IMG/VR virus record: IMGVR_UViG_3300028833_000090
Reading direction: 5' to 3' (one strand)
DNA: 64,000 nt
Origin: an uncultured virus (IMG/VR IMGVR_UViG_3300028833_000090)
Taxonomy: Duplodnaviria; Heunggongvirae; Uroviricota; Caudoviricetes
Part shown: positions 8,300 through 43,712 of the stretch, one piece after another
How positions within the stretch are numbered: the stretch's first letter is position 1
Layout of the letters: every line of letters starts with the position of its first letter
Translations under genes and position numbers: made by a program
The notes under the pieces: model-generated
Told to the model about the DNA's origin: nothing
The model's database searches: none
What the model saw: only the letters and a program-made list of their open reading frames with translations

Positions 8300-8380
8300 G
8301 CGGGTGTGACGGAATGGGTAGACGTAGCACGTTTAGAGCGTGCCGCCAAAAGCGTGGGGGTTCGAGTCCCTTCACCCGTA
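8300..8380 (+). tRNA. tRNA-Leu(TAG)
   Basis: Cloverleaf; GCACG-TTTAGAG-CGTGC, variable arm, TTCGAGT. Confidence 0.95.
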
Positions 8381-8388
8381 CAAAAACT

Positions 8389-8533
8389 GGGGTACAGTAG
8401 TAGTTAAATTGGCTGGAAGCCAGCATTTTCCTTTTTAGGAATTAGGAAGGAAAATGTACTCTGTTCGAGGTTTAAACTGTCGATTCATTATCGATAGAAG
8501 TTTTGACCTGTAGTTCGAATCCGAAGTACTCCA
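8389..8533 (+). ncRNA. Unknown multi-hairpin RNA with acceptor-like closing stem
   Basis: GGGGTAC/GTACTCC-A closure; hairpins CATTTTCCTT/AAGGAAAATG, CTGTCGAT/ATCGATAG, TTCG-AATC-CGAA. Confidence 0.55.
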
Positions 8534-8626
8534 CGATGAGCCTATGGAATCCAGGCCGTGCTAATAAGTAAATTAGATTTTATTCCCTTGATTCCAGGGT
8601 GACATATCGGAAAGACGGTAAATTGT

Positions 8627-8712
8627 GCTGGGATGGCGGAACTGGTAGACGCGGAGGTCTTAAAAATCTCTGGGCAGTAATGCCCTTGGGGGTTCGAATC
8701 CCCCTCCCAGTA
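8627..8712 (+). tRNA. tRNA-Leu(TAA)
   Basis: GAGGT-CTTAAAA-ATCTC, long variable arm. Confidence 0.95.
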
Positions 8713-8724
8713 CTATTATAAAAC

Positions 8725-8798
8725 GGTGCGTTAGTTCAGCTGGCTAGAATGCCTGCCTGTCACGCAGGAGGTCACGGGTTCGATCCCCGTACGTACCG
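8725..8798 (+). tRNA. tRNA-Asp(GTC)
   Basis: CCTGC-CTGTCAC-GCAGG. Confidence 0.95.
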
Positions 8799-8805
8799 CT
8801 ATTTT

Positions 8806-8879
8806 GGGGACATAACTCAGTGGTCCAGAGTGCCTCCCTTACAAGGAGGAAGTCGGTGGTTCGACTCCACCTGTCCCCA
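8806..8879 (+). tRNA. tRNA-Val(TAC)
   Basis: CCTCC-CTTACAA-GGAGG. Confidence 0.95.
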
Positions 8880-8897
8880 CAAAATTCTCTCTCACCT

Positions 8898-9030
8898 AGG
8901 TGGTTGGCGGAATAGGTAGACGCGCGGGGCTAACATCTCTCTGAGATCTGAACTCTGTGCCCTCGTCCTTCTTTCAGGCGACTGAATTAAGGGTAAGTAG
9001 GGCGTACAGGTTCGAATCCTGAACTGCCTA
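8898..9030 (+). ncRNA. Leu-type tRNA-like RNA with enlarged anticodon loop and variable arm
   Basis: Acceptor AGGTGGT/ACTGCCT-A, Leu D-arm GGCGGAATAGGTAGACGC, T-loop GTTCGAATC; 23-nt anticodon loop; ~47-nt variable hairpin. Confidence 0.8.
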
Positions 9031-9168
9031 GCGGAGAATTTTCTTTTTAAGAAATAAAAATAACTAATCAAATACGATTAGTTATTTTTTTTTTGTTTCT
9101 TTCAAGTATTTCAGGAGTTCCCTTGAAATTCTAAATAGTGACTGAATACTAATTAAATTGATAATAAC

Positions 9169-9537
9169 ATGTCGAAGAATTCAAAAAAGTTTTGTATAAA
9201 AAACTTCGTTGAGAAATACAAGGACTATACTTTCAAAGAAGGTGAAGATGTCATTGCATCTAATAGTATAGTTAGGGGTGATTTTTGGGCAAGAAGTACC
9301 TATAAACGTTTTGGAGGGAAGGATTCATTAAACCAAAATCATCACTATATTAATGGAGGCAGTGACTACTTCTTTTATTGCTTACCTCTAAATGAAGAAG
9401 TAATAAATTTTTGTAAAGTAAAGGGTGGTTTTGATTTGTCTTATACTCAAAATATTGTATTTCTCCCTATAGACGAATGGGAGAAATATCAAGGCCTAAT
9501 CACTGATGCTATTATGTGTTGGGATAGGTTTGAATAA
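9169..9537 (+). CDS. Hypothetical protein
   Basis: 122-aa ORF after promoter motif at ~9125. Confidence 0.75.
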   Translation: MSKNSKKFCIKNFVEKYKDYTFKEGEDVIASNSIVRGDFWARSTYKRFGGKDSLNQNHHYINGGSDYFFYCLPLNEEVINFCKVKGGFDLSYTQNIVFLPIDEWEKYQGLITDAIMCWDRFE

Positions 9538-9583
9538 TAATTAAAATAGCTAACGGTTCTTAGTTAATATTATACAGATAAAA

Positions 9584-10132
9584 ATGATAAAATATAAAGG
9601 AACAATAGAGATTAATTACAGTATTCCTCTTTTAATGTTTCCAAAAGGAAGTGAAAGTGATTCTGTAAAACTCGAGGACTTGTATGAGTGGGACAAAGAC
9701 TATGTACTCTGTGAAAAGGAGCCGGGTCAACTCTCAGGCATAGAAAACTTCTTAGAGCAGGGCTTGAATAGTCTAATAAAAGGCATTGGTGAACAGGAAG
9801 ACGTTGTTCCGGTTTTTTACCTGAACCTAAACGAACTTACCGTAAAAGAGATAAAGGTTAGTGTTAGGTATTTTGGTGGATTCTACAACGTGAAATGCAG
9901 TACAGAGTTGGAGCCAAGTCAATATATCACTATTGAAGAAACTCCTGGAAATTCTGTTAATATTACAATAGAAAATGCAATACTTAATAGGATACGTAAA
10001 TGTGTTTCTGATATTATGAGCAAGAGCGATTTAGGTACAGTAATGTATAAGGGAACTCCTTTTATTGTACGTATGGATTGCGATAACGTTGAACATACAT
10101 TTAACTTTTACAAACCACACAATAAAGAATGA
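9584..10132 (+). CDS. Hypothetical protein
   Basis: 182-aa ORF, ATGA overlap with next gene. Confidence 0.8.
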   Translation: MIKYKGTIEINYSIPLLMFPKGSESDSVKLEDLYEWDKDYVLCEKEPGQLSGIENFLEQGLNSLIKGIGEQEDVVPVFYLNLNELTVKEIKVSVRYFGGFYNVKCSTELEPSQYITIEETPGNSVNITIENAILNRIRKCVSDIMSKSDLGTVMYKGTPFIVRMDCDNVEHTFNFYKPHNKE

Positions 10133-10659
10133 AAGATTTAAATAGTTTATATAACATATCACTCTACATTCTCAATCATAATCCCTACGGCAAGAATGTG
10201 CCGATGGAATTAGGACTGTTTTCGAGAATATTATTCGATGCTAATGCATCACAGATATACTCATATGCTTCTGTAATCATTAAAGATTATTGGGAAATTG
10301 ATGAAAAGAAGGATATGATATTTCCTAAATCTTTTGAAAAGATGATCTCTTCCGATAAGTATAAAATATGGATAGAAGGAGATAAAATCTGTACCGATCA
10401 GGATGCCGACTTAGATTATTTATCAGAAGTAACCAAAGAAACTCTAGATAATCATCTAAGACTTCCTGCTGGATGTAGTTGGACTGTCGAAACTTGGTAT
10501 AGAGTTAAAATGAGTCCATCTTTTAAAAATTCTAATATATTTAAGGATAAAAAGAAAATAACTCCTCCAAATATTTTAGAGTATGTTTATAATAATGTTA
10601 AATCTTGCGTAGAGGAACAGTTTTTCCTCGACCAATCATGTGGTAATTATTATAATTAA
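10129..10659 (+). CDS. Divergent Panacea/SocA (DUF4065)-like protein
   Basis: LYILN...SRILFDAN...YASVIIKDYW...ADLDYLSE pattern; GPV motif absent. Confidence 0.45.
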   Translation: MKDLNSLYNISLYILNHNPYGKNVPMELGLFSRILFDANASQIYSYASVIIKDYWEIDEKKDMIFPKSFEKMISSDKYKIWIEGDKICTDQDADLDYLSEVTKETLDNHLRLPAGCSWTVETWYRVKMSPSFKNSNIFKDKKKITPPNILEYVYNNVKSCVEEQFFLDQSCGNYYN

Positions 10660-10673
10660 TAATACAAATAAAA

Positions 10674-11114
10674 ATGACAGAAGAAGAGAAGCAACTACTA
10701 TTAAAAGATTTATGTGCGAGGTTGCCTTATGGAATTATTCTTGATATTGACACAACGGATTGGAAAGTACCACAAGGGCATATACAATTAAAAATAGAAG
10801 GCATTGGCATTATATTTAAAGATATGTCCTTAATTGTAAATGGTTCTTATTATGGTGATAAATATAAGCCATATCTTCGTTCAATATCGAGTATGACCGA
10901 GGAAGAGAAAGAGGAACTAAGGCAAGAACACCTCAAAGATGAGAAGTTGTATGCTGAGTGTATAACAAGGTCAGAGCAGGGTGACAACTCTATGCGTGGT
11001 AAAGTCATTCCACACTTCGCAGCTGATTGGTGTAACGAACATCACTTCGATTATAGGGGTCTTATTGAAATGAACTTAGCCTTAGAAGCCCCAGAAGGTA
11101 TGTATAACAACTAA
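10674..11114 (+). CDS. Conserved phage hypothetical protein
   Basis: MTEEEKQLLLKDLCARLPYG...KPYLR..SSMTEEE, recalled from Bacteroidota phages. Confidence 0.8.
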   Translation: MTEEEKQLLLKDLCARLPYGIILDIDTTDWKVPQGHIQLKIEGIGIIFKDMSLIVNGSYYGDKYKPYLRSISSMTEEEKEELRQEHLKDEKLYAECITRSEQGDNSMRGKVIPHFAADWCNEHHFDYRGLIEMNLALEAPEGMYNN

Positions 11115-11126
11115 TAAAACTGGAAA

Positions 11127-11354
11127 ATGAGGTGTGGAATAAATCCAGAAAAATGTGAGTTTGCATCTAATATGAAAGACAGACCTAATAGTAGATGTCT
11201 TAAATATGAAGATGCAGCTGATTGTCCTAAATGTCTTAGACAAAGAAAAAGACAAAGCAAACATTCTAAACAAAAATTCATTAAGGAATGTTTGATGAAT
11301 TATGACTTTGATAACAAAAAAGTTAAAGCATATTTAAAAAGGAAGTATGATTAA
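11127..11354 (+). CDS. Small Cys-rich protein
   Basis: 75-aa ORF in operon. Confidence 0.65.
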   Translation: MRCGINPEKCEFASNMKDRPNSRCLKYEDAADCPKCLRQRKRQSKHSKQKFIKECLMNYDFDNKKVKAYLKRKYD

Positions 11355-11481
11355 ACAAAGTTGTAAGGTATGTGCACTATCTGAGTTGTCTACAAAAACA
11401 AGAATCAGGTGCAAATACTGGAATAGATGGAAAAAACACTATAATTGGTGTATAAATTTCATAAAGCGTAATAATAGATAA
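11347..11481 (+). CDS. Small Cys-rich protein (44 aa, not in ORF track)
   Basis: MIKQSCKVC...RCKYW...WCINF; fills gap between neighbours. Confidence 0.6.
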   Translation: MIKQSCKVCALSELSTKTRIRCKYWNRWKKHYNWCINFIKRNNR

Positions 11482-11488
11482 AAAATAT

Positions 11489-11884
11489 ATGACAAATAAT
11501 ATGGAAATTACTGAAGATTACGTATCCTTTGAAGTAGCAAAACTTCTTAAGGAAAAAGGATTTGATGTAAGATGTAATACGTACTACATATCAGATAATG
11601 AGATTGCAGCATTACCTATTACAAGAGATTTTAATAATCATGGTATTTACTTATCCGCTCCAACCCATCAAATGGCGATGAAGTGGTTGAGGGAAGTGCA
11701 TGGATTATTTATATCTATTGGAAATGATGACCTTGGCTATAATTGGCAAATAATGGATGTCGAGAATAGGACAGATAACGGTGACCCTACTTATCTGACA
11801 GAATCCTATGCTGGTTATAAATCTTACGAAGATGCTGTAGAAGCAGCACTCAAATATTCACTTTCAGAAAAAATTAATCTATGA
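11489..11884 (+). CDS. Conserved phage hypothetical protein
   Basis: [17 protein letters not shown]...[13 protein letters not shown]. Confidence 0.8.
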
Positions 11885-12237
11885 ACTACAAAGAATTAAT
11901 AGAGTTAATAAATAACCAACAGTTCACCGATTACGAGGAAGCTAAAGATTACATTCTTAGTAATAAATATGCTGAACCGTATTCACCCAAACTTAATCCT
12001 TTCGGGAGTTATTACTTTACACTCGATGAAGTTAATTTGGTACTGATAAAAGAATCTGGTCAGGTTAAATTAGCTAAAGCAATTTCCTCGAGTGAAGTTA
12101 AGAAGTTACGCGAGGTTACAGGACGTGGAATGATGGACTGTAAGAAAGCATTAGTTAAATCAGACGGAGATTTTGAAGAAGCCATCAAAATCCTTGAAAA
12201 GATGCCTATAATACTTGTACATAGGGTAAATGAATAG
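11881..12237 (+). CDS. Protein with EF-Ts N-terminal (UBA-like) domain at its C-terminus
   Basis: [38 protein letters not shown] matches the EF-Ts N-terminal signature. Confidence 0.85.
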
Positions 12238-12273
12238 GAAGTTCTAAAGAATAAAATAATTCTTAATAAGAGA

Positions 12274-12319
12274 AAAAAAAAAATAAAACTAGCATAAAAA
12301 CTAGTTTTATTTTTTTTTT
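12274..12319. terminator. Bidirectional terminator
   Basis: A-tract TAAAACTAG/CTAGTTTTA T-tract between convergent genes. Confidence 0.75.
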
Positions 12320-12320
12320 G

Positions 12321-12782
12321 TTATATCAAATCCCATTTAGATTTAGTTGGAATTTCTCTAAGCCACTCACTCTTTTTACGTATTTTCTCTAACTCTTCTT
12401 CTAACTTTTTATCTGCTTGCCTTTTAGCTTGACGCTTCTCTTCGTAATTTTCTTTATCTATTTTTCGAGATTGATCCCAGTCAATCTCTTTATTACGTCT
12501 ACGTTCAGATAACTCCTTATATTTGTTACGGTAGTTTTCATTAGCTGCTTCATATTCATTATGACGTCGCTCAAAAGCCCTATCTTCCTTTAAATTTTCT
12601 TCTCTTATAGCTGTTCTTTTTGTTCTTATATTTGTTAATGCTCTTCTACCCTCTCTTTTTGCATTCCATGCATGTAAATTTGCATTACTCATTCTTCTAC
12701 TCTCTGTCGGGAAGTATTCATTGCCAGCTTTCAGTACTCTATCTCCCAATAATCCGTATTGTTTAGTTCTATATACAATCAT
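12321..12782 (-). CDS. Charged coiled-coil protein with MIVYRTKQY N-terminal tag
   Basis: 153-aa ORF; shared N-terminal motif. Confidence 0.8.
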   Translation of the reverse strand: MIVYRTKQYGLLGDRVLKAGNEYFPTESRRMSNANLHAWNAKREGRRALTNIRTKRTAIREENLKEDRAFERRHNEYEAANENYRNKYKELSERRRNKEIDWDQSRKIDKENYEEKRQAKRQADKKLEEELEKIRKKSEWLREIPTKSKWDLI

Positions 12783-12923
12783 TTTTTTTTACTTTTATTA
12801 AATTTTAATTCTAGTTATATATAAGGGGGGGGAGTGAAATAATATAATAAAACCATTCTTATTTTTAGAGTTATTTTTTTTTTCTTACAAAATTCTTGTT
12901 TATAGATTAAAATGAAGATAATT

Positions 12924-13652
12924 ATGATATTATATAGAACTAAATATTTCACAACACTTACTCATTATACAACAGCTCCAGGGGCTATTCAAATAATGAG
13001 AAATGGATTTATCGATCAAAGACAGGAAAAATTACATGGATTATCATTCTTTGATATAGAAGATGATTATATACGTAATAATCCAAAGATTGATATGGTG
13101 GATTTGATAAAGTATTATAAAAGTTTGGATCCAAGAGATAAAATCTATATAAAAAAGTTAAATGAGAAGGATGATTATGGTTACGATTTGTATGATATAG
13201 ATGAAAATGCTATTGTTCATAGGACTAATTTTGGTTATCTAAAAACTAAAAATCAATATAATTCAGACCCAGCGCTAGATGCTTCTGAACATTACAATAG
13301 TTTTATTAGACATCCAGAAAATAAAAATCCTCTACCTATAGAGTTATCTCAACTCCAACATTTATCCGGTGCCTTACATAAAAACAAGAATAATGAACGT
13401 ATATATAGAATTATAACAGAATCTAAAAATAATAGAGATCTATATTCAATTAAGGGTATGCTTGAAACGAGAACCCCAGCTGTTAATATAGATAATACAA
13501 AGAATAAATTAGAAATTCCTAGAGGTATGTATAAAGCTCATAAAGATGGGTATTTAAACGATTTTAGTTTATTTAAAGAATCTGATTACAACATGAATGA
13601 CTTACCGACAAGGGAAGCCGTAGAAGATATATTAAAAAATTATGAAAGATGA
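12924..13652 (+). CDS. MILYRTKYF-tag protein, possible ADP-ribosyltransferase-like fold
   Basis: Start set at MILYRTK; LTHYTT..GA.QIMRNGFI resembles the first strand and helix of ART-fold proteins (weak). Confidence 0.7.
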   Translation: MILYRTKYFTTLTHYTTAPGAIQIMRNGFIDQRQEKLHGLSFFDIEDDYIRNNPKIDMVDLIKYYKSLDPRDKIYIKKLNEKDDYGYDLYDIDENAIVHRTNFGYLKTKNQYNSDPALDASEHYNSFIRHPENKNPLPIELSQLQHLSGALHKNKNNERIYRIITESKNNRDLYSIKGMLETRTPAVNIDNTKNKLEIPRGMYKAHKDGYLNDFSLFKESDYNMNDLPTREAVEDILKNYER

Positions 13653-14554
13653 TATTATATAGAACAAAGTATTATGGTGTAGCTGATAGTGTTCGAAAGG
13701 CAAAGGGTGAATATTTAGATAAATTATTTTTAAATGCGAAGAGGAAAAGAAATAATATTGAATGGGAGAAATGCTTAGACAATGAATGGGATGTTATAAA
13801 AGATCATTATAAAAATGAAGTCAAAAAACAACTTAAGAAAGGTGACGAACTTCAACTTGAGAGAAATCTAAAGATGAAAAATACAAGGCCTGATGAATCA
13901 GTTAGAGAAGACTTTTTCAATAAGTATTCAAGACTCGCAGAAGATAATGGTATTTCTATAGTCATTGACCCTACAATAAAAAATCCTTTTACTCGGGGTA
14001 CGGAGCTTCATCTAAAAAGCGATAAAGGAACCTCGATAGCTCACGAAATTGAACATGCATTTCAAAATAAGAACAGGGAATTACTATTACCTAAAAGTCG
14101 AAGAAGTGCTAATTACGGTATTGTAGAATCTCTAAAGAAAAATGATGATGCTACTCCTTTAATGAAAGTTTTATATAATCGAGATCAACTTCCATTAGAT
14201 TATTTAAGAGGAGCTGTTGCTAAGGAAGATGGCGCTATTACAGCTAATACAAAAAGGTTGTACCTTGATCCAAAGATTTCATTGGATTTTGTAGGGGCTT
14301 CTGAGCATACTCCATATAAATTATGGACAAGAGCTCCTTTAGGTGATACTAATACAAACAGAAACTATGCTGATCTTCTTTCAAAGAACTGGATTGATCC
14401 TGAATTATACGGCAAAATAAAAGAAAATGCTAAAAAGAAGGGTATTGATCTAGAAAAGAAAAGTAGAGTAGATAGAACACCAGGAACACCAGATGTAATA
14501 GAGAGAGTAAAAAAGTGGAATCTTGAAAAATTTGGTCATTCAAATATAAATTAG
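13649..14554 (+). CDS. MILYRTKYY-tag protein with HExxH metallopeptidase motif
   Basis: SIAHEIEH; downstream E in AKEDGA. Confidence 0.75.
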   Translation: MILYRTKYYGVADSVRKAKGEYLDKLFLNAKRKRNNIEWEKCLDNEWDVIKDHYKNEVKKQLKKGDELQLERNLKMKNTRPDESVREDFFNKYSRLAEDNGISIVIDPTIKNPFTRGTELHLKSDKGTSIAHEIEHAFQNKNRELLLPKSRRSANYGIVESLKKNDDATPLMKVLYNRDQLPLDYLRGAVAKEDGAITANTKRLYLDPKISLDFVGASEHTPYKLWTRAPLGDTNTNRNYADLLSKNWIDPELYGKIKENAKKKGIDLEKKSRVDRTPGTPDVIERVKKWNLEKFGHSNIN

Positions 14555-14617
14555 GGAGAAATTTTCCCTCAAAATTCTTAGTATTGATTAAGAGACTGTC
14601 GAATCGTAGGTCGACAC

Positions 14618-14690
14618 ACAAGGGTAGTTCAGCTGGTAGAACGCTGGTCTCCAAAACCAGTGGTCGGGAGTTCGAGTCTCTCACCTTGTG
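14618..14690 (+). tRNA. tRNA-Trp(CCA)
   Basis: CTGGT-CTCCAAA-ACCAG. Confidence 0.93.
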
Positions 14691-14729
14691 CTTTTTGATA
14701 ATGGATATATTCCATTTGATAGAAAAATG

Positions 14730-14854
14730 CTGAGATGGGTTTTTGGGTGTAGTCTTCCCTCTTCAATGACGCGAAGGTAGATCTAGAACATTGATAGATA
14801 ATAGACAAACCAGACTACAGAGACGAGTTCTGTTGACACTCAGGAAAGACTGAG
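14730..14854 (+). ncRNA. Unknown long irregular hairpin RNA
   Basis: CTGAG/CTCAG, TGTAGTCT/AGACTACA, TCAATG/CATTGA nested; 3' TCAG-GAAAGA-CTGA hairpin. Confidence 0.45.
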
Positions 14855-14859
14855 GAAAT

Positions 14860-14932
14860 GCGGGAGTAGCTCAATTGGTAGAGTATCTGCCTTCCAAGCA
14901 GAGGGTTGCGGGTTCGAGACCCGTCTCCCGCT
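14860..14932 (+). tRNA. tRNA-Gly(TCC)
   Basis: TCTGC-CTTCCAA-GCAGA. Confidence 0.95.
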
Positions 14933-14975
14933 CTTTTTACTATTAATTTAATTATTAATTTAAAAACACAACACT

Positions 14976-15230
14976 ATGACAACAAGTTTTATAACATTTA
15001 TTATGGGGATTTTCCTCATATGGTGTGTAACAGATTCAATGAATGAGACTAAGACTCTCTATGAGATTCTTCTTTCAACGGAGAAGGATGAAAATGTAAA
15101 GAGCCAGCTAACGGATCTTTATAAAAAATCAAAGAAAACTAGTATTAAGTATTTGATTATTTTTACTATTCTTCTCGTTGTTTCTCTTGCTATTTCTGTT
15201 ACGAATTTAATTGCAACATTAAGCAACTAA
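14976..15230 (+). CDS. Small two-TM membrane protein
   Basis: Hydrophobic N- and C-terminal segments. Confidence 0.75.
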   Translation: MTTSFITFIMGIFLIWCVTDSMNETKTLYEILLSTEKDENVKSQLTDLYKKSKKTSIKYLIIFTILLVVSLAISVTNLIATLSN

Positions 15231-15290
15231 TATTATATGGTGGGTGGGGAAACCTACCCACCATTTTTTATTTCATCAAATTAATTAATT

Positions 15291-15617
15291 ATGAACTACG
15301 AAGAGAATGATAAGAAAAGACGATATTATGAAGATCTGTTAAGAAAGCGTATTGATATCGTTCAAAGAAGACAGATTGGGCTTATGGATCTTGTTGACAG
15401 GCTTCAAAAAGAGGCTGGAATAACAAGAGGAGATGCTATTGTACATGAAGTTTATAAGGGAACAGATAAAATTTGGAATAAATTATCAGAAAAATCCTTA
15501 GAAAAGTTCCTTCAATATCAAGAAGCTTTAATAGATCTTGAGAATGAGACTAATAAACTCAACAAATTAAACGAAATTTTAAATAATCTTCTTGAAGAAA
15601 GAAATACAAATGACTAA
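15291..15617 (+). CDS. Hypothetical coiled-coil protein
   Basis: 108-aa ORF. Confidence 0.75.
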   Translation: MNYEENDKKRRYYEDLLRKRIDIVQRRQIGLMDLVDRLQKEAGITRGDAIVHEVYKGTDKIWNKLSEKSLEKFLQYQEALIDLENETNKLNKLNEILNNLLEERNTND

Positions 15618-16119
15618 AGAAGAAAAGATCGAGGCACTTGAGGCAGAAATGAACGAGCACTATGACAAGGCCTGGAGTTTACGTGATGAAATTGAGAAGC
15701 TTAGATTAAGTGATATTAATTTTGAGGGTAAATTCGTAGCTAGATCTGATGGTTATGGTGCCCCTTTCAATGACTATATGATTGTAAGTAGTCAACAGCT
15801 TACTGAAGTAAGAGGTAAAAAAGAGGTTTGTTTAACTGGTTTAGCATTCTATATGATGGATGGCGGTTATACGGACAGTATTGATCTATTCTTTAGAGGC
15901 GAGCATACCTGGTGGATTCCTCTGGATGATATTCTTAACCTAAAAACCAATAAAAAGTTGAAAGAAATTGATAAAGAGACTTATTTAAAGGCTGTAGGTG
16001 AGTATATAAAATCCATTCCAGCTTTCATAGATAAATGGATTAATGTTTACATTAAAAATTACGTAGAAAATGACGGAGAAAAATCTAGCTCTACTGAAGG
16101 AGAAGCTTCAAGCTTGTAA
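15610..16119 (+). CDS. Hypothetical protein, paralog of the next gene
   Basis: INFEGK..NDYMIV..VCLTGLAFY. Confidence 0.8.
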   Translation: MTKEEKIEALEAEMNEHYDKAWSLRDEIEKLRLSDINFEGKFVARSDGYGAPFNDYMIVSSQQLTEVRGKKEVCLTGLAFYMMDGGYTDSIDLFFRGEHTWWIPLDDILNLKTNKKLKEIDKETYLKAVGEYIKSIPAFIDKWINVYIKNYVENDGEKSSSTEGEASSL

Positions 16120-16513
16120 TGAACAAGCTGCTCGTTTAAAAGCTGAAATAGAAAAAGATGAGCTAAAAGGAATTAATTATGAGGGTAAGATTCTTTTTAG
16201 AAAAGATGGTACTGGAAATGATTATATGATCGTAAAACGTCAATGTAAAGATGGTGATAAAGTTTGTCTCTCTGGTTTAAATTTTTATATCAACAATTCC
16301 ACAGAAGAATTAGAAAATGCTGAGGTATTTTTTAAAGGGTGGATGACTTGGTGGTATGATCTAAACGAATTTCTTAATCTAGGTAAAGATAAAGATCATA
16401 AAGTCTTGAATAAAATAACTTTTATGAGTGAAATAAAGGGGTATCTAAAAACCCTTGAAACCTTTATAAATGATTGGATTGAAAAATTTATTTCAGAAAA
16501 TGAAATAAATTAA
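16070..16513 (+). CDS. Hypothetical protein, paralog of the previous gene
   Basis: INYEGK..NDYMIV..VCLSGLNFY. Confidence 0.8.
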   Translation: MTEKNLALLKEKLQACNEQAARLKAEIEKDELKGINYEGKILFRKDGTGNDYMIVKRQCKDGDKVCLSGLNFYINNSTEELENAEVFFKGWMTWWYDLNEFLNLGKDKDHKVLNKITFMSEIKGYLKTLETFINDWIEKFISENEIN

Positions 16514-16552
16514 TCTAATCATTTCTAGATCATATTAACGATTTCTGTTAAT

Positions 16553-16624
16553 TGACCTGTGGTGTAACGGTTAGCACCCGAGATTTTGGTTCTCGTAGTG
16601 GGGGTTCGAGTCCCTCCAGGTCAA
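16553..16624 (+). tRNA. tRNA-Gln(TTG)
   Basis: CGAGA-TTTTGGT-TCTCG. Confidence 0.95.
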
Positions 16625-16634
16625 CGCTTTCCGT

Positions 16635-16786
16635 GAGGCTGCGTAGCGCAATTTGGGTTAACTTGAGGGATAAAAGTTAATCTGGAGGCCTCCAAACGAA
16701 TGGTATAGTGGATGCTATACCGCCTGCTAGTATGAAGTAGGTTGTAGTTATCAGTCCCAAGAATCCGAGATCATACTATCGGGTTC
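16635..16786 (+). ncRNA. Unknown multi-hairpin RNA with kissing loops
   Basis: Five hairpins; loop AGTATGA complementary to loop TCATACT. Confidence 0.6.
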
Positions 16787-16799
16787 ATTTAAAATATAA

Positions 16800-16873
16800 T
16801 CTGTTATAGCTCAGTGGATAGAGCGGCTCTCAATAATTGAGAGAAGACGTGGACTCAATCTCCTCTAACAGAA
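16800..16873 (+). ncRNA. Atypical tRNA-like RNA (zipped anticodon loop, non-canonical T-loop)
   Basis: TCTGTTA/TAACAGA acceptor, normal D-arm, CTCTCAA-TAA-TTGAGAG, T-loop CTCAATC. Confidence 0.7.
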
Positions 16874-16883
16874 CATATAAATT

Positions 16884-16957
16884 GCCGATGTAGCTCAGCT
16901 GGCCAGAGCGGCTGATTTGTAATCAGCGGGTCGTGGGTTCAAATCCCTCCGTCGGCT
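16884..16957 (+). tRNA. tRNA-Thr(TGT)
   Basis: GCTGA-TTTGTAA-TCAGC. Confidence 0.95.
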
Positions 16958-16989
16958 CTATTTTTAACTAAATTAAAATTAAAATTAAA

Positions 16990-17136
16990 ATGATCAATAA
17001 GTTTTTATTACTAATTACCATCTTTTCAGATAGAATAGATAAATTCTTATGTGATAATTATTGGACTGTAATGTCTGTTATGGTTATCCTATTTGTAATT
17101 GCAGTAATAATTATCTCTAAGAATCCTAAAAAATAG
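16990..17136 (+). CDS. Small membrane protein (48 aa)
   Basis: MINKFLL...VMSVMVILFVIAVIIISKNPKK. Confidence 0.55.
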   Translation: MINKFLLLITIFSDRIDKFLCDNYWTVMSVMVILFVIAVIIISKNPKK

Positions 17137-17200
17137 GAGTAATAAAAAACACATTTTAAATCTTTCAATACATTTTTAACAATTAAAAAAACATATACAT

Positions 17201-17275
17201 GACAGGGTGGCTGAGAGGTCCAAAGCAACGGTCTGCAAAACCGTACAACCGTGGGTTCGAATCCCACCCCTGTCT
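17201..17275 (+). tRNA. tRNA-Cys(GCA)
   Basis: ACGGT-CTGCAAA-ACCGT; U73. Confidence 0.93.
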
Positions 17276-17281
17276 CATTAT

Positions 17282-17496
17282 AAATCACTACAAGTAGGTT
17301 TGTCATACCTTGCAATTATCTCTTCTTACAATAAGCCAGTTCTCAAATTCTAGAAAGTATGCTAACGCATACATCGGGCTATGTGGGGAGTCTCCTCATA
17401 AGCTAAATAGAAACTGCAGAAATTCTATTTAGTGAAACAGGAGATAGTAAGGTCATAGGTAATGAGAATACAGTATGATCTAAGAAGTAGTGATTT
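17282..17496 (+). ncRNA. Unknown ~215-nt structured RNA
   Basis: Terminal AAATCACTAC/GTAGTGATTT, nested helices, three internal hairpins. Confidence 0.6.
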
Positions 17497-17512
17497 TTTA
17501 GGAAATAAAAAC

Positions 17513-17586
<74 letters not shown>

Positions 17587-17599
17587 CAAATATTAAAAC

Positions 17600-17673
17600 G
17601 GGAATGTAGCTCAGTTGGTTAGAGCAATGTGCTGTTAACACATGGGCCGTGGGTTCGAATCCCTCCTTTCCCG
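17600..17673 (+). tRNA. tRNA-Asn(GTT)
   Basis: ATGTG-CTGTTAA-CACAT. Confidence 0.93.
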
Positions 17674-17716
17674 CAACGTCCTAATTACCTAGAGCTATAA
17701 AGGTGAAGCTCTTAAT

Positions 17717-17801
17717 GGGGAAGCGGCTACGATGGTGGAGTGGCGGCGGACTGTAAATCCGTTACATTGATACGCAGTAGGTTCGAATCCTACCTTCCCC
17801 A
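17717..17801 (+). tRNA. tRNA-Tyr(GTA)
   Basis: GCGGA-CTGTAAA-TCCGT, long variable region; C at position 8. Confidence 0.9.
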
Positions 17802-17827
17802 CACATAAGTTTATAATTTTTTGGTAA

Positions 17828-17901
17828 GCGCCAGTAACTCAGTTGGCTAGAGTACGATACTTTTAATATCGGAGTCCCGAGTTCGAATCTCGGCTGGCGC
17901 A
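17828..17901 (+). tRNA. tRNA-Lys(TTT)
   Basis: CGATA-CTTTTAA-TATCG. Confidence 0.95.
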
Positions 17902-17908
17902 CAAACTT

Positions 17909-17996
17909 GGAGAGTTGGCAGAGTGGACGAATGCAGCGGTTTGCTAAACCGTCGACCGCGAAGAGCGGTCCACAGGTTCGAATCCTGTACTCTCCG
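17909..17996 (+). tRNA. tRNA-Ser(GCT)
   Basis: GCGGT-TTGCTAA-ACCGT, long variable arm, G73. Confidence 0.95.
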
Positions 17997-18026
17997 CATT
18001 ATTTTCCACTAATAAAAAAAAACAAA

Positions 18027-18197
18027 ATGGCAAAGAAAAAAATTTATATCAATGACGGAAAAGATTTTACCGACTATGTAGAAGACGCAGTTGATAAGGT
18101 CGAGGAAACAATCACTAGCATTCCAGATAAATGCGAGAAAGTGGTTGACAAGGTGGAAGATGCAGTGGATCGTTTCATTGACTTCTTCACGATTTAG
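18027..18197 (+). CDS. Small acidic amphipathic repeat protein (56 aa)
   Basis: MAKKK...VEDAVDKVE...VDKVEDAVD. Confidence 0.7.
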   Translation: MAKKKIYINDGKDFTDYVEDAVDKVEETITSIPDKCEKVVDKVEDAVDRFIDFFTI

Positions 18198-18212
18198 AGG
18201 CACATCTTTACA

Positions 18213-18286
18213 GGGCCTGTAATTCAGTTGGTCAGAAAGCTCGCCTCATAAGCAAGTAGTCGGGGGTTCAAGTCCCTCCAGGCCCA
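18213..18286 (+). tRNA. tRNA(CAT), probably Ile2
   Basis: CAT anticodon with GGGCCTG Ile-type acceptor. Confidence 0.85.
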
Positions 18287-18292
18287 CAAAAG

Positions 18293-18402
18293 ACACACCA
18301 GTAGATGCGTAATCCGAAAGGAGATAAACATCCGGGGGTTCGAATCCCTCACCTGCCTGAATGGGCAGGTTGGCAGAGCGGTTGATTGCAATGCAGGTGT
18401 GT
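18293..18402 (+). ncRNA. Circularly permuted tRNA mimic (YrlA/Y-RNA-like topology)
   Basis: T-arm, then 3' acceptor strand, loop, 5' acceptor strand, then D-arm; ends pair as ACACACC/GGTGTGT. Confidence 0.8.
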
Positions 18403-18451
18403 ATTTTTTATAGGTTATTAGGACCAAGAAATCACCTTTCTTGGTCAATTT

Positions 18452-18525
18452 GGGTCTGGTAGCTCAGCTGGTAGAGCGTCTGAATGAAAATCAGAAGGTC
18501 ACTGGTTCAAATCCAGTCCGACCCA
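18452..18525 (+). tRNA. tRNA-Phe(GAA), bulged acceptor stem
   Basis: TCTGA-ATGAAAA-TCAGA; GGGTC(T)GG/CCGACCC. Confidence 0.85.
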
Positions 18526-18616
18526 CTTTTCATACTAGGTTATATAGTTATCGTCTTCCAAACTAAGATTGAGATGGTCTATATGTAATTACTTATCCGG
18601 AGAGTCCCTAGTAATT

Positions 18617-18689
18617 GGGGAGGTAGCACTGGTGGTCAGTGCACTGGACTGAAAATCCAGCCAAGAAGGTTCGACTCCTTCCCTTCCCA
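18617..18689 (+). tRNA. tRNA-Phe(GAA), second divergent copy
   Basis: CTGGA-CTGAAAA-TCCAG. Confidence 0.9.
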
Positions 18690-18935
18690 CAATTTATTAC
18701 TAATCATTGCTGATTAGTAATTTTTTTTTTGCTCATGAAATATGTTGTTATGAAAATAAAACCCTAAATATGTGATTAAAATTCACTCACATCAATGAAT
18801 AAGATTATTATGAGTGAAATTAATGATTGGATTACAAAAGCCGGTAAAATTCTTACGAAAGATGAAATAGTATTATTTTTTGTTAGTTATGTTATACCGT
18901 CTTGAATTATATTAAAGATAAGAGGGATTAACGTA

Positions 18936-19082
18936 ATGGAAACTATAGCTTTATATTTTAAAGCAATTAAATCTGTTCTTGAAGAAGGAGGACTAAATGC
19001 TTGGTTATTATTAATTCTCTTTGGAATAATAATAGGATTTATTATCTGGCTTTTAATTTGGCTTCTTTTTAAGAAAGATTAA
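18936..19082 (+). CDS. Small membrane protein (48 aa)
   Basis: WLLLILFGIIIGFIIWLLIWLLFKKD. Confidence 0.65.
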   Translation: METIALYFKAIKSVLEEGGLNAWLLLILFGIIIGFIIWLLIWLLFKKD

Positions 19083-19091
19083 AGACAAACG

Positions 19092-19244
19092 AATACTTGG
19101 TAGCCCGAGGAAGTCTGGGAATTCGGGGTAATAGAGCAGTCAAGTGGAATGACATAGTGACTAAATTGAAGTGCCAGTTTTTAGAATTGGATATACCAGA
19201 TGATAGCGAAGGTCACTCGATTCTTGAATAAATTATCAAGTATT
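19092..19244 (+). ncRNA. Unknown ~150-nt structured RNA
   Basis: Terminal AATACTTGGTA/TATCAAGTATT; internal AGTGACT/GGTCACT and TCTGG/CCAGA. Confidence 0.5.
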
Positions 19245-19280
19245 AGTTTTTAAATAAAACACAATAAAATTAAAATAATT

Positions 19281-19460
19281 ATGGTATATACATCGGTGTA
19301 TCAAGCCTCTCAAAATCTAAACAATGTAATAAAAGATATTTTGAGTAGTGGTTATCCAATTTATCTCTCAGTAGATGGAAAGGAGGTAACTTTAAACAAT
19401 AAAAATACAAAAGTAGAGGTCGGAAGTGAAGAAGACCTTGAAATTAAGATAAAAGAGTAA
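19281..19460 (+). CDS. Hypothetical protein (59 aa)
   Basis: MVYTSVYQ...EIKIKE, A-rich leader. Confidence 0.65.
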   Translation: MVYTSVYQASQNLNNVIKDILSSGYPIYLSVDGKEVTLNNKNTKVEVGSEEDLEIKIKE

Positions 19461-19472
19461 AAAAAATACAAT

Positions 19473-20185
19473 GACGTGCTGGTAAGGGAAAGATCTAAAA
19501 AATCTAACCCCAAATACGGCATCTTGAATTTAACGGAATGTGGGTACGGCCTGGCGTAGGCTCTTTATAAAAGCTGTACACTAAGACCTGACGGGGTATA
19601 ATTAATAAATCAAATATATGTAGACTTATCTCTCACACCTAGTGCAGGGTAGCGTGAGAACTTATCTAGTCTCCGTGAGGATGTAAGTCCCAGCCCTACA
19701 CTGGAGTGGAGCTGTTCTATAACCCGGGTTATAGGTGATATTACTAATCACGTAAGTTGATTTTTTATTATTTCGGAGATCTCAATAAATTTATGACTAA
19801 ATATAATCTCGAAAGGGTTTCCACGCGATCTTGAAAAGACCGCGTGAGAATAAAAGGCAATGTCGGTTATAATTAATCATGCCGAGATACCCCATTTTGA
19901 ATCCAGGAGAATAAGAGATTGTATTGTATTGATCATAATAAGTTCAGTAGAGTCTATAAAGCTCGAGATTACTTGCTGATTATTGAGATTCGTGTCTATT
20001 TCGCTTACTCGTGTAGTTAGTGAAAGTCACTTATTCAGTAAAAGTGTCTGGTGGCTATCACGGTAAATAACAGGTCCTAAATGGAATGTCTGATACCGAT
20101 AAAAAATAAAGGAAGGTTATTTGCGCGATTACCCCTTTATTTGGTAGTCCCTGTATTTGGTGCTAATAACACATATCAGCATGTC
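19473..20185 (+). ncRNA. Large (~713 nt) structured RNA of unknown class
   Basis: No ORF of 60 aa or more; 12-bp terminal helix and several long-range helices; next to tRNA-Arg. Confidence 0.7.
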
Positions 20186-20203
20186 TGCGTATTTAATATA
20201 AAA

Positions 20204-20277
20204 GGTCCCTTAGCTCAACGGACTAGAGCAACAGCCTTCTAAGCTGTGGGTTGAAGGTTCGAATCCTTCAGGGATCA
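20204..20277 (+). tRNA. tRNA-Arg(TCT)
   Basis: ACAGC-CTTCTAA-GCTGT. Confidence 0.95.
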
Positions 20278-20357
20278 CTCGGATTGTCATTTTTTGCTAG
20301 AAGCATGAATCATTTTTGTCATGCTTCTAGTTTTTATTTTTACACACAATTAATATT

Positions 20358-22184
20358 ATGGAAAATAATCAAAATCAATTAAATTTATTTCAGAAATTAT
20401 TCGGTATTTTTATGTCGGGTGTCAATAGCCGTATACCAATTAGAAGTAATATTTATAATAAAAAGGGTTATTCAGCTATTGGTTCTACCGGTAATAAATT
20501 ATTTGAGGTAGATAGAAAATCACCACTATTAGGTAATGCTAACGCATCTAATCTAATCTCAGGTTATTACGAAAGGGTACTTGAATTAAAAGGATATCAA
20601 TTGCTCGATATAACAAAATTAGCTACAAACTTTTTTTCCGATTATATCGTGAACTTTCTATCTGATGAAGGTGGTGGTAGTCAGATTGTTTCAATTATGA
20701 ATGAAGATGGTACTAATAACCAGCAAGTAACTGATCGTATAAATCAAATTTTAACAAAAGATATTAAAATATTTGATTATATTAGAAATCATATACAGGA
20801 TTTTGTATTCTATGGCCAGTACTATTCTATGCTCGTTTCAAGTAGAGATGATACAGGACACTTAAAATTTAGAATAGAAGAGTTAGTAGATCCCGTATCT
20901 GTTATTCAAAAGAGAAAAAGAAAAACAGATGGAAGCGGTGAAATGGAAGATTTATTTTTAGCTAAGGGTGAAGGTGGTATCATTGTAGAAATACCTAAGA
21001 AAGAAATCATATATTTAGCTAATCATGATCTTCGACTCTTGAATGACCTCGCAGATAAAGTGGAGTATAATAGTGGTCTTAGAGCGAGAAAAGATAAGAA
21101 TGATCCATTAACTAGCTTCTTGAAACCAGAGTCTAGTAACGGTAAACCCAAACATTATACTCCTAATTTTCAAGACAATAAAAAAGTTATTTTAAAGGAT
21201 GGAGTATCTGTAACAGATCCAAAAGATGGTAAAGCCAATAGAGACAGAGTACTTATCAAAGAATCCTATACTACATCAGAGCCTTTGTTCTACTCTTTAC
21301 TGTTGAAGGTAAAAGAGCTAGTTATTAAGGAGTTGCTAGTGTCATTGATTTCTTTACGTGATTTGTCTAGTGTTCAGATATTCTTATTACAATTCGATAA
21401 GAATATTCCTCTAGAAGCTGCAACTGAACTCTGTAAAAGAGCAGCTAAATTGACTAATAATACGAATGATTTAGCTAGTTTCTTGACATCTCAGTTTGAT
21501 GTTATATCATTTATTGAGAATACACTAACTCAAGGTACTAAATTTGTACCTGATTATGGTGGATCTTTATCTGCAAAGAATCCTATGCTTCCGCTTGATA
21601 AGTTAAGTGATAAGTATATAGAGATTATGCAAACATTGGATCAATGTAGAGCAGCTATATTAGGCCCTCTTGGTTTGCCTGTTACTTTAACGGATTCCAC
21701 TTCTGGTTCAAAATGGCAAGTATTACAGCAATCTGAACGTGCTAATTCAAGAGTTGCTAGTTTCTTGGATGGTATAAAGAGTTCTGTTACCGATTTAGTA
21801 TGTAATCTTTATGAAATTATTTATTCAGATAAACTAGACCCAAGTTTAGTTAAGTTACATATTAGTGAGAAGACTTCAGTTGAATATAACAACCAGATTA
21901 ACCAGTCAGAATCAATTAACGGTCTTCTCCAGAGCATTAATAATATCCTTCAAGGAGCATTACAGATGCTAGATATGGGAGCTCCTTATCTTGATCCAAA
22001 GAATTATTTGACTTATATTCAGAATTTGATTAGAGATATAGACCCGAATACGGAGAGTATAATTAATGAAAAATCTATTGAACTATACTTGCAAGTGGTT
22101 AATGCTAAACTTGCTCAACAATTTGAACAGTATGGACTAGATCCTTCAATACTTCAACAAGACGATAATCAACAACAGCAATAA
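20358..22184 (+). CDS. Putative portal protein
   Basis: 608 aa; helical layout with IFDYIRNHIQDFVFYGQYY and ILGPLGLP, reminiscent of T4-gp20-like portals; by eye only. Confidence 0.5.
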   Translation: MENNQNQLNLFQKLFGIFMSGVNSRIPIRSNIYNKKGYSAIGSTGNKLFEVDRKSPLLGNANASNLISGYYERVLELKGYQLLDITKLATNFFSDYIVNFLSDEGGGSQIVSIMNEDGTNNQQVTDRINQILTKDIKIFDYIRNHIQDFVFYGQYYSMLVSSRDDTGHLKFRIEELVDPVSVIQKRKRKTDGSGEMEDLFLAKGEGGIIVEIPKKEIIYLANHDLRLLNDLADKVEYNSGLRARKDKNDPLTSFLKPESSNGKPKHYTPNFQDNKKVILKDGVSVTDPKDGKANRDRVLIKESYTTSEPLFYSLLLKVKELVIKELLVSLISLRDLSSVQIFLLQFDKNIPLEAATELCKRAAKLTNNTNDLASFLTSQFDVISFIENTLTQGTKFVPDYGGSLSAKNPMLPLDKLSDKYIEIMQTLDQCRAAILGPLGLPVTLTDSTSGSKWQVLQQSERANSRVASFLDGIKSSVTDLVCNLYEIIYSDKLDPSLVKLHISEKTSVEYNNQINQSESINGLLQSINNILQGALQMLDMGAPYLDPKNYLTYIQNLIRDIDPNTESIINEKSIELYLQVVNAKLAQQFEQYGLDPSILQQDDNQQQQ

Positions 22185-22230
22185 AAAAAGAATTAGATAA
22201 GATTTAAATCTTATCTAATTCTTTTAATTT

Positions 22231-35997: not shown

Positions 35998-36065
35998 ATT
36001 ACAGACTAAAAAAGAAAATAGAAGAACTTATTTAAATAAGTTCTTCTATTTTTTATTCTTCCTTC

Positions 36066-42666: not shown

Positions 42667-42780
42667 TTTTTGTAGTTTTATAATTAATTAATATCTAGAA
42701 AAATAAATTGAAGAAAATATAAGTATGTTATTATTATATTTTCTTCTTATATTAGATTTTTAAGGGAGCAAAAAAAAACA

Positions 42781-43580
42781 ACCCTGAGACTATCGGGTTG
42801 TAATGAGTTCATTTTCTGAGGTTGGCCCCAGTCAGTCACACGTATATTTCTACACGTAGAGCTCAATGGCAGTTTGATAAGGCTCAAACCTAAACCTTTA
42901 CTTTTACGCTAATAATTTCACCTTTCGCACCTAGTCGCCCTGGAAAGGCGTGCAGGAGATCCCTCCCCTTACCATGATGTTAATCCGCTACTCTTCAGCT
43001 ACTTTCCTCGCGGTACTCGTAACTGCCCCCATTTTGCAGAGGGATAAGCCATTTTTTGCATAAAAGTGTGGTCACACTTTTGCTTTTTAAAGGAAATTCA
43101 TTAATTTTCTTTTTTGTGATTCCGGAAATAGCCATCCGGTAGCGGCATTGAGAGTGTGGTGACCACTTTTTGTAGTTCTCTCCCTTTTGAGGAAAGCCCA
43201 CTACGACACTCTCTAAGACGACCTTTTGCATCAGTCATCTCTTTAACAGCATCTTATCAAGTTTGGTTAGTTTACTTGATCTCAACTGTTAATGATACAC
43301 GCACTTGGTTGCTTATGCCTCGTACATAGTATCTCCGTGATTATACAGAGCTATTTCTAGCTCCTGCTCCCATTTCAGGAAGCTACACCCATCTTTTCGA
43401 ACTCTTTGGGGATTCGAACCTTCCCCAGATGAATGCAGTCATCATCGTTCCCTTCAATAGCTAGCTATTTTCATAGCTAGTGGCGATCCTTGCCGGGGTC
43501 ACCATTTATGCCCATTGCTGGGTTTATCCTTTGATTCAGTCGCTGAGGGCACGGCTGCCAGAATGTTTCCACTCTGGTAA
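42781..43580 (-). ncRNA. GOLLD-like large structured RNA (~800 nt)
   Basis: ORF-poor and richer in GC; downstream of tRNA-Pro and tRNA-Met; many hairpins, GTGGTCAC/GTGACCAC long-range pair, 3' AGTCTCAGGGT then T-tract. Confidence 0.6.
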
Positions 43581-43712
43581 TTTTTTTGTAGTTTTATTTT
43601 TTTTGTTCTCTTTTAAGAAATACAGGTCTTTTGAACCGACCTTTTTTCAGTAAAAAAGAAAACCCACTCGTCTCTGAGCTAACAGACTACGAGTGGGAAA
43701 AACTACTTCGTG

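Follow-up and report, generated by a model that had tools for sequence, protein, structure and literature searches.

We analyzed a stretch of 64,000 nucleotides (nt) from an uncultured jumbo phage of the sheep rumen (IMG/VR record IMGVR_UViG_3300028833_000090; hereafter, the window) and propose, with a rough probability of 0.6, that positions 19461-20203 are a lineage-specific gene for a large non-coding RNA (ncRNA) on the + strand, co-regulated with the GOLLD RNA of the same phage. An RNA gene is likely at this site because the sequence is conserved between strains, because contigs from RNA libraries cover it, and because it has an upstream motif in common with the GOLLD-type RNA. The product would be a stable RNA of about 715-740 nt, forming one unit with tRNA-Arg(UCU), and our interpretation is that it acts in trans as a structural RNA, biologically akin to GOLLD and ROOL yet a member of neither family. 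The core of the candidate is as follows:

19473-20185, + strand: 713-nt core of the candidate large ncRNA, with a 12-base-pair (bp) terminal helix joining its ends; 19464-20194 with an outer 6-bp extension.

The stretch 19461-20203 is non-coding. It had been predicted to be free of open reading frames (ORFs), and the largest ORF overlapping it indeed measures 53 amino acids (aa); reading TAG as glutamine opens nothing above 62 aa. Strains differ within the stretch by a deletion of one nt (19529), an insertion of one (after 19562), a deletion of two (19597-98), a further deletion of one (19823), and an insertion of eight (after 19954), and no reading frame would tolerate such indels, which supports the non-coding assignment. 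The G+C content is 0.36-0.43 over 19400-20300, compared to 0.26-0.34 in the flanking genes and 33.6% in the AT-rich window as a whole.

The evidence for constraint comes from comparison with the nearest relative, G001, a 210-kb IMG/VR contig rated 56% complete. Outside a variable hairpin, the stretch differs from G001 at 11 of 686 positions (98.4% identity), compared to 110 of 1827 in the 608-aa gene and 140 of 2319 in the 772-aa gene downstream (together 250 of 4146). The RNA stretch thus changes about four times less than the two large genes (Fisher p = 1.3e-7). The small 59-aa ORF upstream differs at 13 of 180 positions and tRNA-Arg at 5 of 75. A different pattern was found at one local hairpin:

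19822-19846, + strand: variable hairpin, whose window form has an inner TCTT/AAGA stem enclosed by a CACGCG/CGCGTG stem.

At this site, G001 carries another 7-bp stem, ACAATCT/AGATTGT. Although 16 of the 35 aligned positions differ, a stem is retained (-6.1 kcal/mol), and equal stability was reached in only 35 of 2000 controls in which these changes had been permuted; judged from the aligned strains, this stem swap appears to be the sole clear compensatory signal. In RNA run X11, the window-type hairpin occurs between flanking variants of the G001 type, so that the two alleles recombine. Among the remaining strain variants, 19988 A>G replaces a U-A pair by U.G within a 10-bp helix described below, 19859 A>G would give a G.U pair if an alternative helix formed (19856-62 / 19878-83, recognized by eye), and the 8-nt insertion of X11 is located at a predicted hairpin loop.

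Sequence nearly identical to the window is present in sequencing runs from sheep, goat, and bovine gut. In total, 24 runs are listed as holding the stretch, of which six are metatranscriptomes. We aligned contigs of three RNA runs (X4, X7, and X11) and one goat DNA run (X8) to 18300-21300. The RNA libraries yielded contigs at 19392-19734 and 19705-20230 (X4), at 19476-19778, 19756-19907, and 19951-20198 (X7), and at 19351-20071 (X11). Two X7 contig ends, 19476 and 20198, lie a few bases from the predicted RNA ends, which, coming from one run, is a hint only. Two of the contigs begin upstream of the promoter-predicted start discussed below (19351 and 19392), placing the true 5' end within 19351-19479. 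In the protein-coding flanks, positions 18704-19208 and about 20730-21300 lacked a contig in the three RNA runs and were covered in the X8 DNA, which we did not count as evidence. As a separate observation, one X4 contig of 821 nt matches the window over only 343 nt, from 19734 to 19392, beyond which its sequence is different; in this strain, the RNA and its upstream element lie behind different DNA, as if they were a movable cassette.

The link to the second RNA of the phage rests on the following features:

19417-19472, + strand: shared upstream element, recognized by alignment with the region before the GOLLD-type RNA; overlaps the end of the 59-aa ORF.
43595-43614, - strand: AAAAGAGAACAAAAAAAATA, the second upstream motif and the only other copy in the window; immediately precedes the GOLLD-type RNA.
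42781-43213, - strand: conserved 3' domain of the GOLLD-type RNA (RF02032, matched over model positions 1-416 of 416 with 91.6 bits and E 2.4e-24).

The upstream element consists of a 5-bp hairpin AGGTC..GACCT (19417-19438), the heptamer AAAAGAG (19451-19457), and an A-run followed by TA (19459-19468), and it holds a promoter-like, sigma-70-like sequence TTAAGA-17-TACAAT (19444-19472). The upstream regions of both RNAs align over the hairpin, AAAAGAG, and the A-run ending in TA; by manual count, the first internal hairpin starts 18 nt past the motif in both RNAs. The pattern AAAAGAG-N1-4-AAAAAAATA has exactly two copies in the window (0.02 expected; none of 100 shuffles reached two) and, likewise, exactly two copies in the 210 kb of G001, at homologous places, with a count of zero for the reversed-pattern control. 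When two mismatches were allowed, about ten further A-rich sites appeared, and only the exact form is specific.

The RNA at 42781 had been described as GOLLD-like, and the covariance model bears this out, with a score below the RF02032 gathering score of 150 and with the conserved blocks of the family in place. The whole GOLLD-type RNA extends over about 42775-43590 (minus strand), downstream of tRNA-Pro and tRNA-Met, and its homologue in G001 scores 88.2 bits with RF02032. It was found only in scans of at most 1 kb; speed filters proved costly, since both whole-window scans missed it. Relative to G001, nine changes in this RNA cluster at 42814-42843, within a hairpin, and may represent a further stem swap. 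A link between the two large RNAs by sequence or complementarity was looked for, and none was found.

The + strand is favored because the G.U pairs of the terminal helix and of the 19800-10/19915-25 helix become A.C mismatches on the minus strand, and the 19988 variant agrees with this orientation. The minimum free energy (MFE) of the + strand lies 12 kcal/mol below that of the minus strand. Furthermore, the tRNA array and a terminator are both on the + strand. The proposed unit includes the following two features, the second of which closes it before the 608-aa gene:

20204-20278, + strand: tRNA-Arg (anticodon UCU), called by ARAGORN; Rfam tRNA model, 69 bits.
20297-20342, + strand: terminator-like hairpin, an inverted repeat with a 12-bp perfect stem and a 10-nt loop, then a T-run.

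The candidate RNA had been placed directly before tRNA-Arg, and the tRNA gene does start 9 nt past the end of the extended terminal helix (20194). The hairpin at 20297-20342 was missed by a simple terminator scan because the loop limit of that scan was 8 nt. From this arrangement, we propose that transcription would start at or shortly before 19417-19472, at a signal that also precedes the GOLLD-type RNA, and would run through tRNA-Arg to the hairpin and T-run. RNase P, which cuts at the 5' end of tRNAs during their processing, would cleave at 20204 and thereby free the 3' end of the candidate RNA, whose ends would then pair (19464-19484 with 20174-20194) and close a multi-domain fold.

No known RNA family had been matched to the candidate in the original prediction, and an Rfam scan of 19300-20350 (1051 nt, lax filters) agrees, with no family at E ≤ 10. 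The scan returned tRNA-Arg and chance-level matches only, the latter to two plastid untranslated region families (E 0.75 and 2) on the strand opposite to the tRNA. The GOLLD-type RNA at 42781-43213 was the positive control and was recovered by a scan of equal size. On 19300-20350, neither the GOLLD 3'-domain model (RF02032) nor the ROOL model (RF03087, 574 positions) gave a match at E ≤ 10, and the same was true for the group I and group II intron models. Over 20 records including G001, the ROOL model matched none, in a search that was without a positive-control match. No host gene is interrupted at the site; the flanking ORF is terminated by a stop codon of its own, and the tRNA-Arg gene is undisrupted. 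The candidate RNA was also said to look unlike the RNA at 42781, and BLAST detected no similarity between the two. It does share with GOLLD the trait of being phage- or prophage-encoded near tRNA genes, yet we do not file it under GOLLD or ROOL because neither covariance model matches.

The search for relatives outside the immediate lineage gave negative results throughout. In 50,697 phage records (blastn, distant settings), only the tRNA-Arg part was matched. With the 608-aa neighbor as query, 20 IMG/VR loci were obtained, 19 of them distant (54-61% aa identity); in the contigs of these 19, no blastn, nhmmer, or covariance-model match to the candidate RNA was found anywhere, and the GOLLD and ROOL models did not match either. 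The syntenic place in these relatives is taken by other genes or by an unrelated AT-rich gap, with no tRNA or RNA. Seven motifs of the RNA, scanned in IMG/VR viral contigs, retrieved only G001 and one chance match (L031). One motif retrieved 21 loci in JGI metagenome contigs and another search with one motif 19 loci in GTDB genome contigs, none of which extended into a real match. Covariance models of two regions, R1 (19628-19756) and R2 (20048-20162), applied to G001-G020, matched G001 only, the others reaching an E-value of 0.17 or worse. A complete 353-kb relative, G018, carries neither RNA and has only six tRNA genes. As relatives outside G001 and the near-identical strains lack a match to the RNA, the tRNA island, the GOLLD RNA, and the candidate RNA look like accessory cargo of one lineage. 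Among literature listings and abstracts, no paper was found that describes an additional class of large RNAs from jumbo phages of the rumen.

Regarding the fold, every sequence listed in the original prediction was found where it had been placed, and we compared the proposed helices to dinucleotide shuffles (150 for helices, 60 for MFE z-scores). The terminal helix pairs GACGTGCTGGTA (19473-19484) with TATCAGCATGTC (20174-20185), includes two G.U pairs, and is present in both the MFE and the maximum expected accuracy folds with a mean pair probability of 0.99. In the predicted fold, it is extended outward by 6 bp (AAAUAC 19464-19469 / GUAUUU 20189-20194) and inward by 8 bp (19511-19518 / 20152-20159). 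Its length is ordinary, as 82% of 150 shuffles held a helix of at least 12 bp (Watson-Crick and G.U) anywhere in the stretch, but its end-to-end placement is not: only 2 of 150 shuffles had such a helix between their first and last 40 nt, which makes the placement the sole unusual helix feature. Both proposed long-range helices were also present, one being a perfect 10-bp inverted repeat (ATCTCAATAA 19779-19788 / TTATTGAGAT 19980-19989) and the other an 11-bp helix with one U.G pair (AATATAATCTC 19800-19810 / GAGATTGTATT 19915-19925). The 7-bp match GGGGTAT (19593-19599) / ATACCCC (19887-19893), from which a pseudoknot had been suggested, does cross both of these helices; its size is unremarkable, however, because shuffled sequences have, on average, a longest Watson-Crick helix of 8.9 bp. 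Local hairpins were confirmed at 19717-19734, 19822-27/19841-46, and 20104-12/20134-42, the first of which coincides with a palindrome:

19717-19734, + strand: perfect 18-nt palindrome CTATAACCCGGGTTATAG, a hairpin with a self-complementary tip, unchanged in G001; one of four perfect palindromes of at least 16 nt in the window.

The MFE z-score was -2.75 for the + strand and -4.39 for the minus strand (-3.08 and -7.01, respectively, with 20 shuffles). Altogether, the sequence-only evidence for an exceptional fold is weak, because most helices and hairpins are ordinary in comparison with dinucleotide shuffles.

Several further observations weigh against an RNA gene with the proposed ends and fold. 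At least one long-range Watson-Crick helix of at least 10 bp occurred in 16% of shuffles, so that the two long-range helices, while present, are at chance level. The number of local hairpins is not above expectation either (perfect stems of at least 6 bp, 9 vs. 9.2; of at least 7 bp, 3 vs. 2.35). Coding controls of equal length gave MFE z-scores of -0.09, -3.74, and -0.20, one of the three beating -2.75. Substitutions at 19505, 19680, 20049, and 20115 disrupt predicted MFE pairs, and the natural variants gave no signal when compared to random changes of the same type (delta MFE -1.9 vs. -0.2 ± 4.6; 37% of 120 random variant sets had an equal or lower MFE change). The low divergence from G001 could partly reflect recent recombination, as some 150-nt coding bins are also 99% identical. 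The collection of homologues suggested along with the original prediction did yield G001 and near-identical strains; these, at about 97% identity, are the sole relatives found, and covariation beyond the one swapped hairpin cannot be assessed because none is more distant, so that the new ncRNA class considered in the original prediction is a conjecture. The RNA-library contigs do not show strand, ends, or abundance, and DNA may occur in such libraries. The -10 box (19467-19472), if used, puts the start near 19479, inside the 12-bp helix, part of which would thereby be lost, and since the 5' end is uncertain, so is the terminal helix. Finally, the upstream motif was defined after both copies had been seen, which weakens its statistics; its replication in the extra 150 kb of G001 is independent of how the motif was chosen.

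Some of these points would be expected if the stretch were merely a transcribed spacer, i.e., a long 5' leader of the tRNA-Arg precursor that is degraded after RNase P processing and has no function of its own. Its position inside the tRNA array directly before tRNA-Arg, the near-chance thermodynamic and helix statistics, the strain changes that disrupt predicted pairs, and the absence of a signal in the natural-variant MFE test all fit such a leader. A spacer should, however, drift at least as fast as synonymous sites, whereas the stretch changes about four times less than the neighboring genes. A mere leader would also not account for a hairpin retained through a complete stem swap, an upstream motif common only to the GOLLD-type RNA, a G+C content raised as in tRNAs, or contigs from three RNA libraries over nearly the whole stretch, and we consider it unlikely. 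Conservation by itself cannot separate RNA from DNA function, and the constraint could in principle belong to a replication origin, a packaging site, or a regulatory region before head-morphogenesis genes, with proteins binding the inverted repeats. The 18-nt palindrome would suit this explanation, as would the location just upstream of the 608-aa protein, whose look-alikes of the T4 gp20-type portal are a lead only. We nevertheless judge it improbable: no iterons or direct-repeat arrays were found, the G+C content exceeds that of the surroundings, unlike typical AT-rich origins, the G.U asymmetry favors one strand, RNA-library contigs cover the stretch, the upstream motif is common to a bona fide RNA gene, and 19 relatives with a homologous 608-aa gene lack the stretch.

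The stretch might still be a very diverged member of a described family that escapes the covariance models, such as ROOL, GOLLD in its variable 5' part, a group I or group II intron lacking an ORF, or another Rfam family. The niche in a rumen phage beside tRNAs is that of ROOL and GOLLD, according to excerpts of PMC5737381 and PMC12286853. Moreover, divergence in this phage lineage is large, because even its GOLLD scores below the gathering cut-off and was missed by whole-window scans. The lax 1051-nt scan nevertheless returned no family at E ≤ 10, the ROOL model matched none of the 20 records (again, without a positive-control match), the GOLLD model matches the other locus only, there is no sequence similarity between the candidate and the window's GOLLD, and the interrupted gene that an intron would need is missing. 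We therefore give this explanation as little credence as a DNA-level element. A decayed or recoded protein-coding gene is close to refuted. Genetic code 4 does open a frame over the stretch, a single one of 183 aa on the minus strand, but it needs read-through of four TGA codons, it contains strain indels of -2, -1, and +8 nt, and the neighboring genes are long and open under code 11; in addition, a pseudogene would be expected to change more than the coding genes, and this stretch changes less.

Taking the candidate as an RNA gene co-regulated with GOLLD, a more far-reaching proposal can be made, which we put forward only tentatively. The candidate could be the founding member of a third large "ornate" kind of phage RNA that works alongside GOLLD, with one signal for both and possible self-assembly. 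By analogy, self-assembly may proceed via self-complementary tips, namely CCCGGG at 19723 (in the palindrome) and a GCGCG loop at 20122, and the pairing of such tips would resemble the kissing-loop bridges of ROOL and GOLLD cages. The swappable hairpin at 19822-19846 would then represent a specificity or spacer arm. The occurrence in one phage of two unrelated large RNAs, one of them GOLLD-type, that follow the same rare upstream signal offers a concrete experimental handle, and it raises the questions of whether both RNAs are made together, whether they act together, and how many unrelated large RNAs occupy the tRNA-island niche.

Two protein-coding features flank the proposed unit:

20358-22184, + strand: 608-aa gene, downstream of tRNA-Arg and the terminator-like hairpin.
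19281-19460, + strand: small ORF of 59 aa, whose last 14 codons overlap the upstream element common to both large RNAs.

The 59-aa ORF is probably a real small gene, because its differences from G001 comprise seven synonymous and five non-synonymous codon changes. For the neighboring proteins in 9000-33000, no PHROGs match (0 of 10) and no real Pfam match (0 of 14) was obtained. Atlas look-alikes of the 608-aa protein include the T4 gp20-type portal clusters mentioned above; a role of the candidate RNA at the portal like that of the phi29 pRNA was considered and rejected as unsupported, because relatives carrying the same 608-aa gene have no such RNA. Relatives more distant than G001 reach up to 353 kb, and the IMG/VR relatives carry a viral classification.

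ARAGORN called 20 tRNA genes in the window, most of which form an array at 8300-20278. The Rfam tRNA model additionally matched two sites without an ARAGORN call, i.e., a 74-nt tRNA-like gene at 16800-16873 (41 bits) and a 133-nt match at 8898-9030 (29.6 bits), which could be an intron-bearing or otherwise odd tRNA. Long perfect palindromes were seen at 22186-22225 (40 nt) and at 36015-36052 (38 nt), the former between the convergent 608-aa and 772-aa genes and likely a bidirectional terminator. In the complete 353-kb relative, an ORF-free gap of 1063 nt with a G+C content of 0.40 was noted (G018:C1:161638-162700, L062), in which coding-like pieces flank folded-looking sequence; it may be an intron and is unrelated to the candidate RNA.

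Of the bacterial and phage RNAs without a known function, GOLLD and ROOL belong to the largest. Excerpts of PMC5737381 and PMC12286853 describe both as large phage or prophage RNAs near tRNA islands, with unknown function, and report that kissing loops and A-minor contacts hold together the cages, made of RNA only, into which they assemble. With GOLLD, the candidate RNA has in common its large size (about 0.7-0.8 kb), its occurrence in a phage next to tRNA genes, and that its upstream element recurs before the phage's own GOLLD-type RNA and nowhere else in the window or G001. It differs in the order of RNA and tRNA genes, as it precedes its tRNA and the window's GOLLD follows tRNA-Pro and tRNA-Met, and in giving neither a match to the GOLLD model at E ≤ 10 nor BLAST similarity to the window's GOLLD. 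GOLLD assembles as a 14-mer cage, according to excerpts of PMC12286853. The likeness to ROOL lies in the rumen habitat, carriage by a phage near tRNA islands, a size of 0.6-0.7 kb, and the several multi-stem junctions predicted for the candidate RNA. ROOL has few highly conserved nucleotides, as described in excerpts of PMC5737381; its model finds no match in the stretch or in G001, and the candidate RNA, in contrast, comes from one lineage with a predicted fold only.

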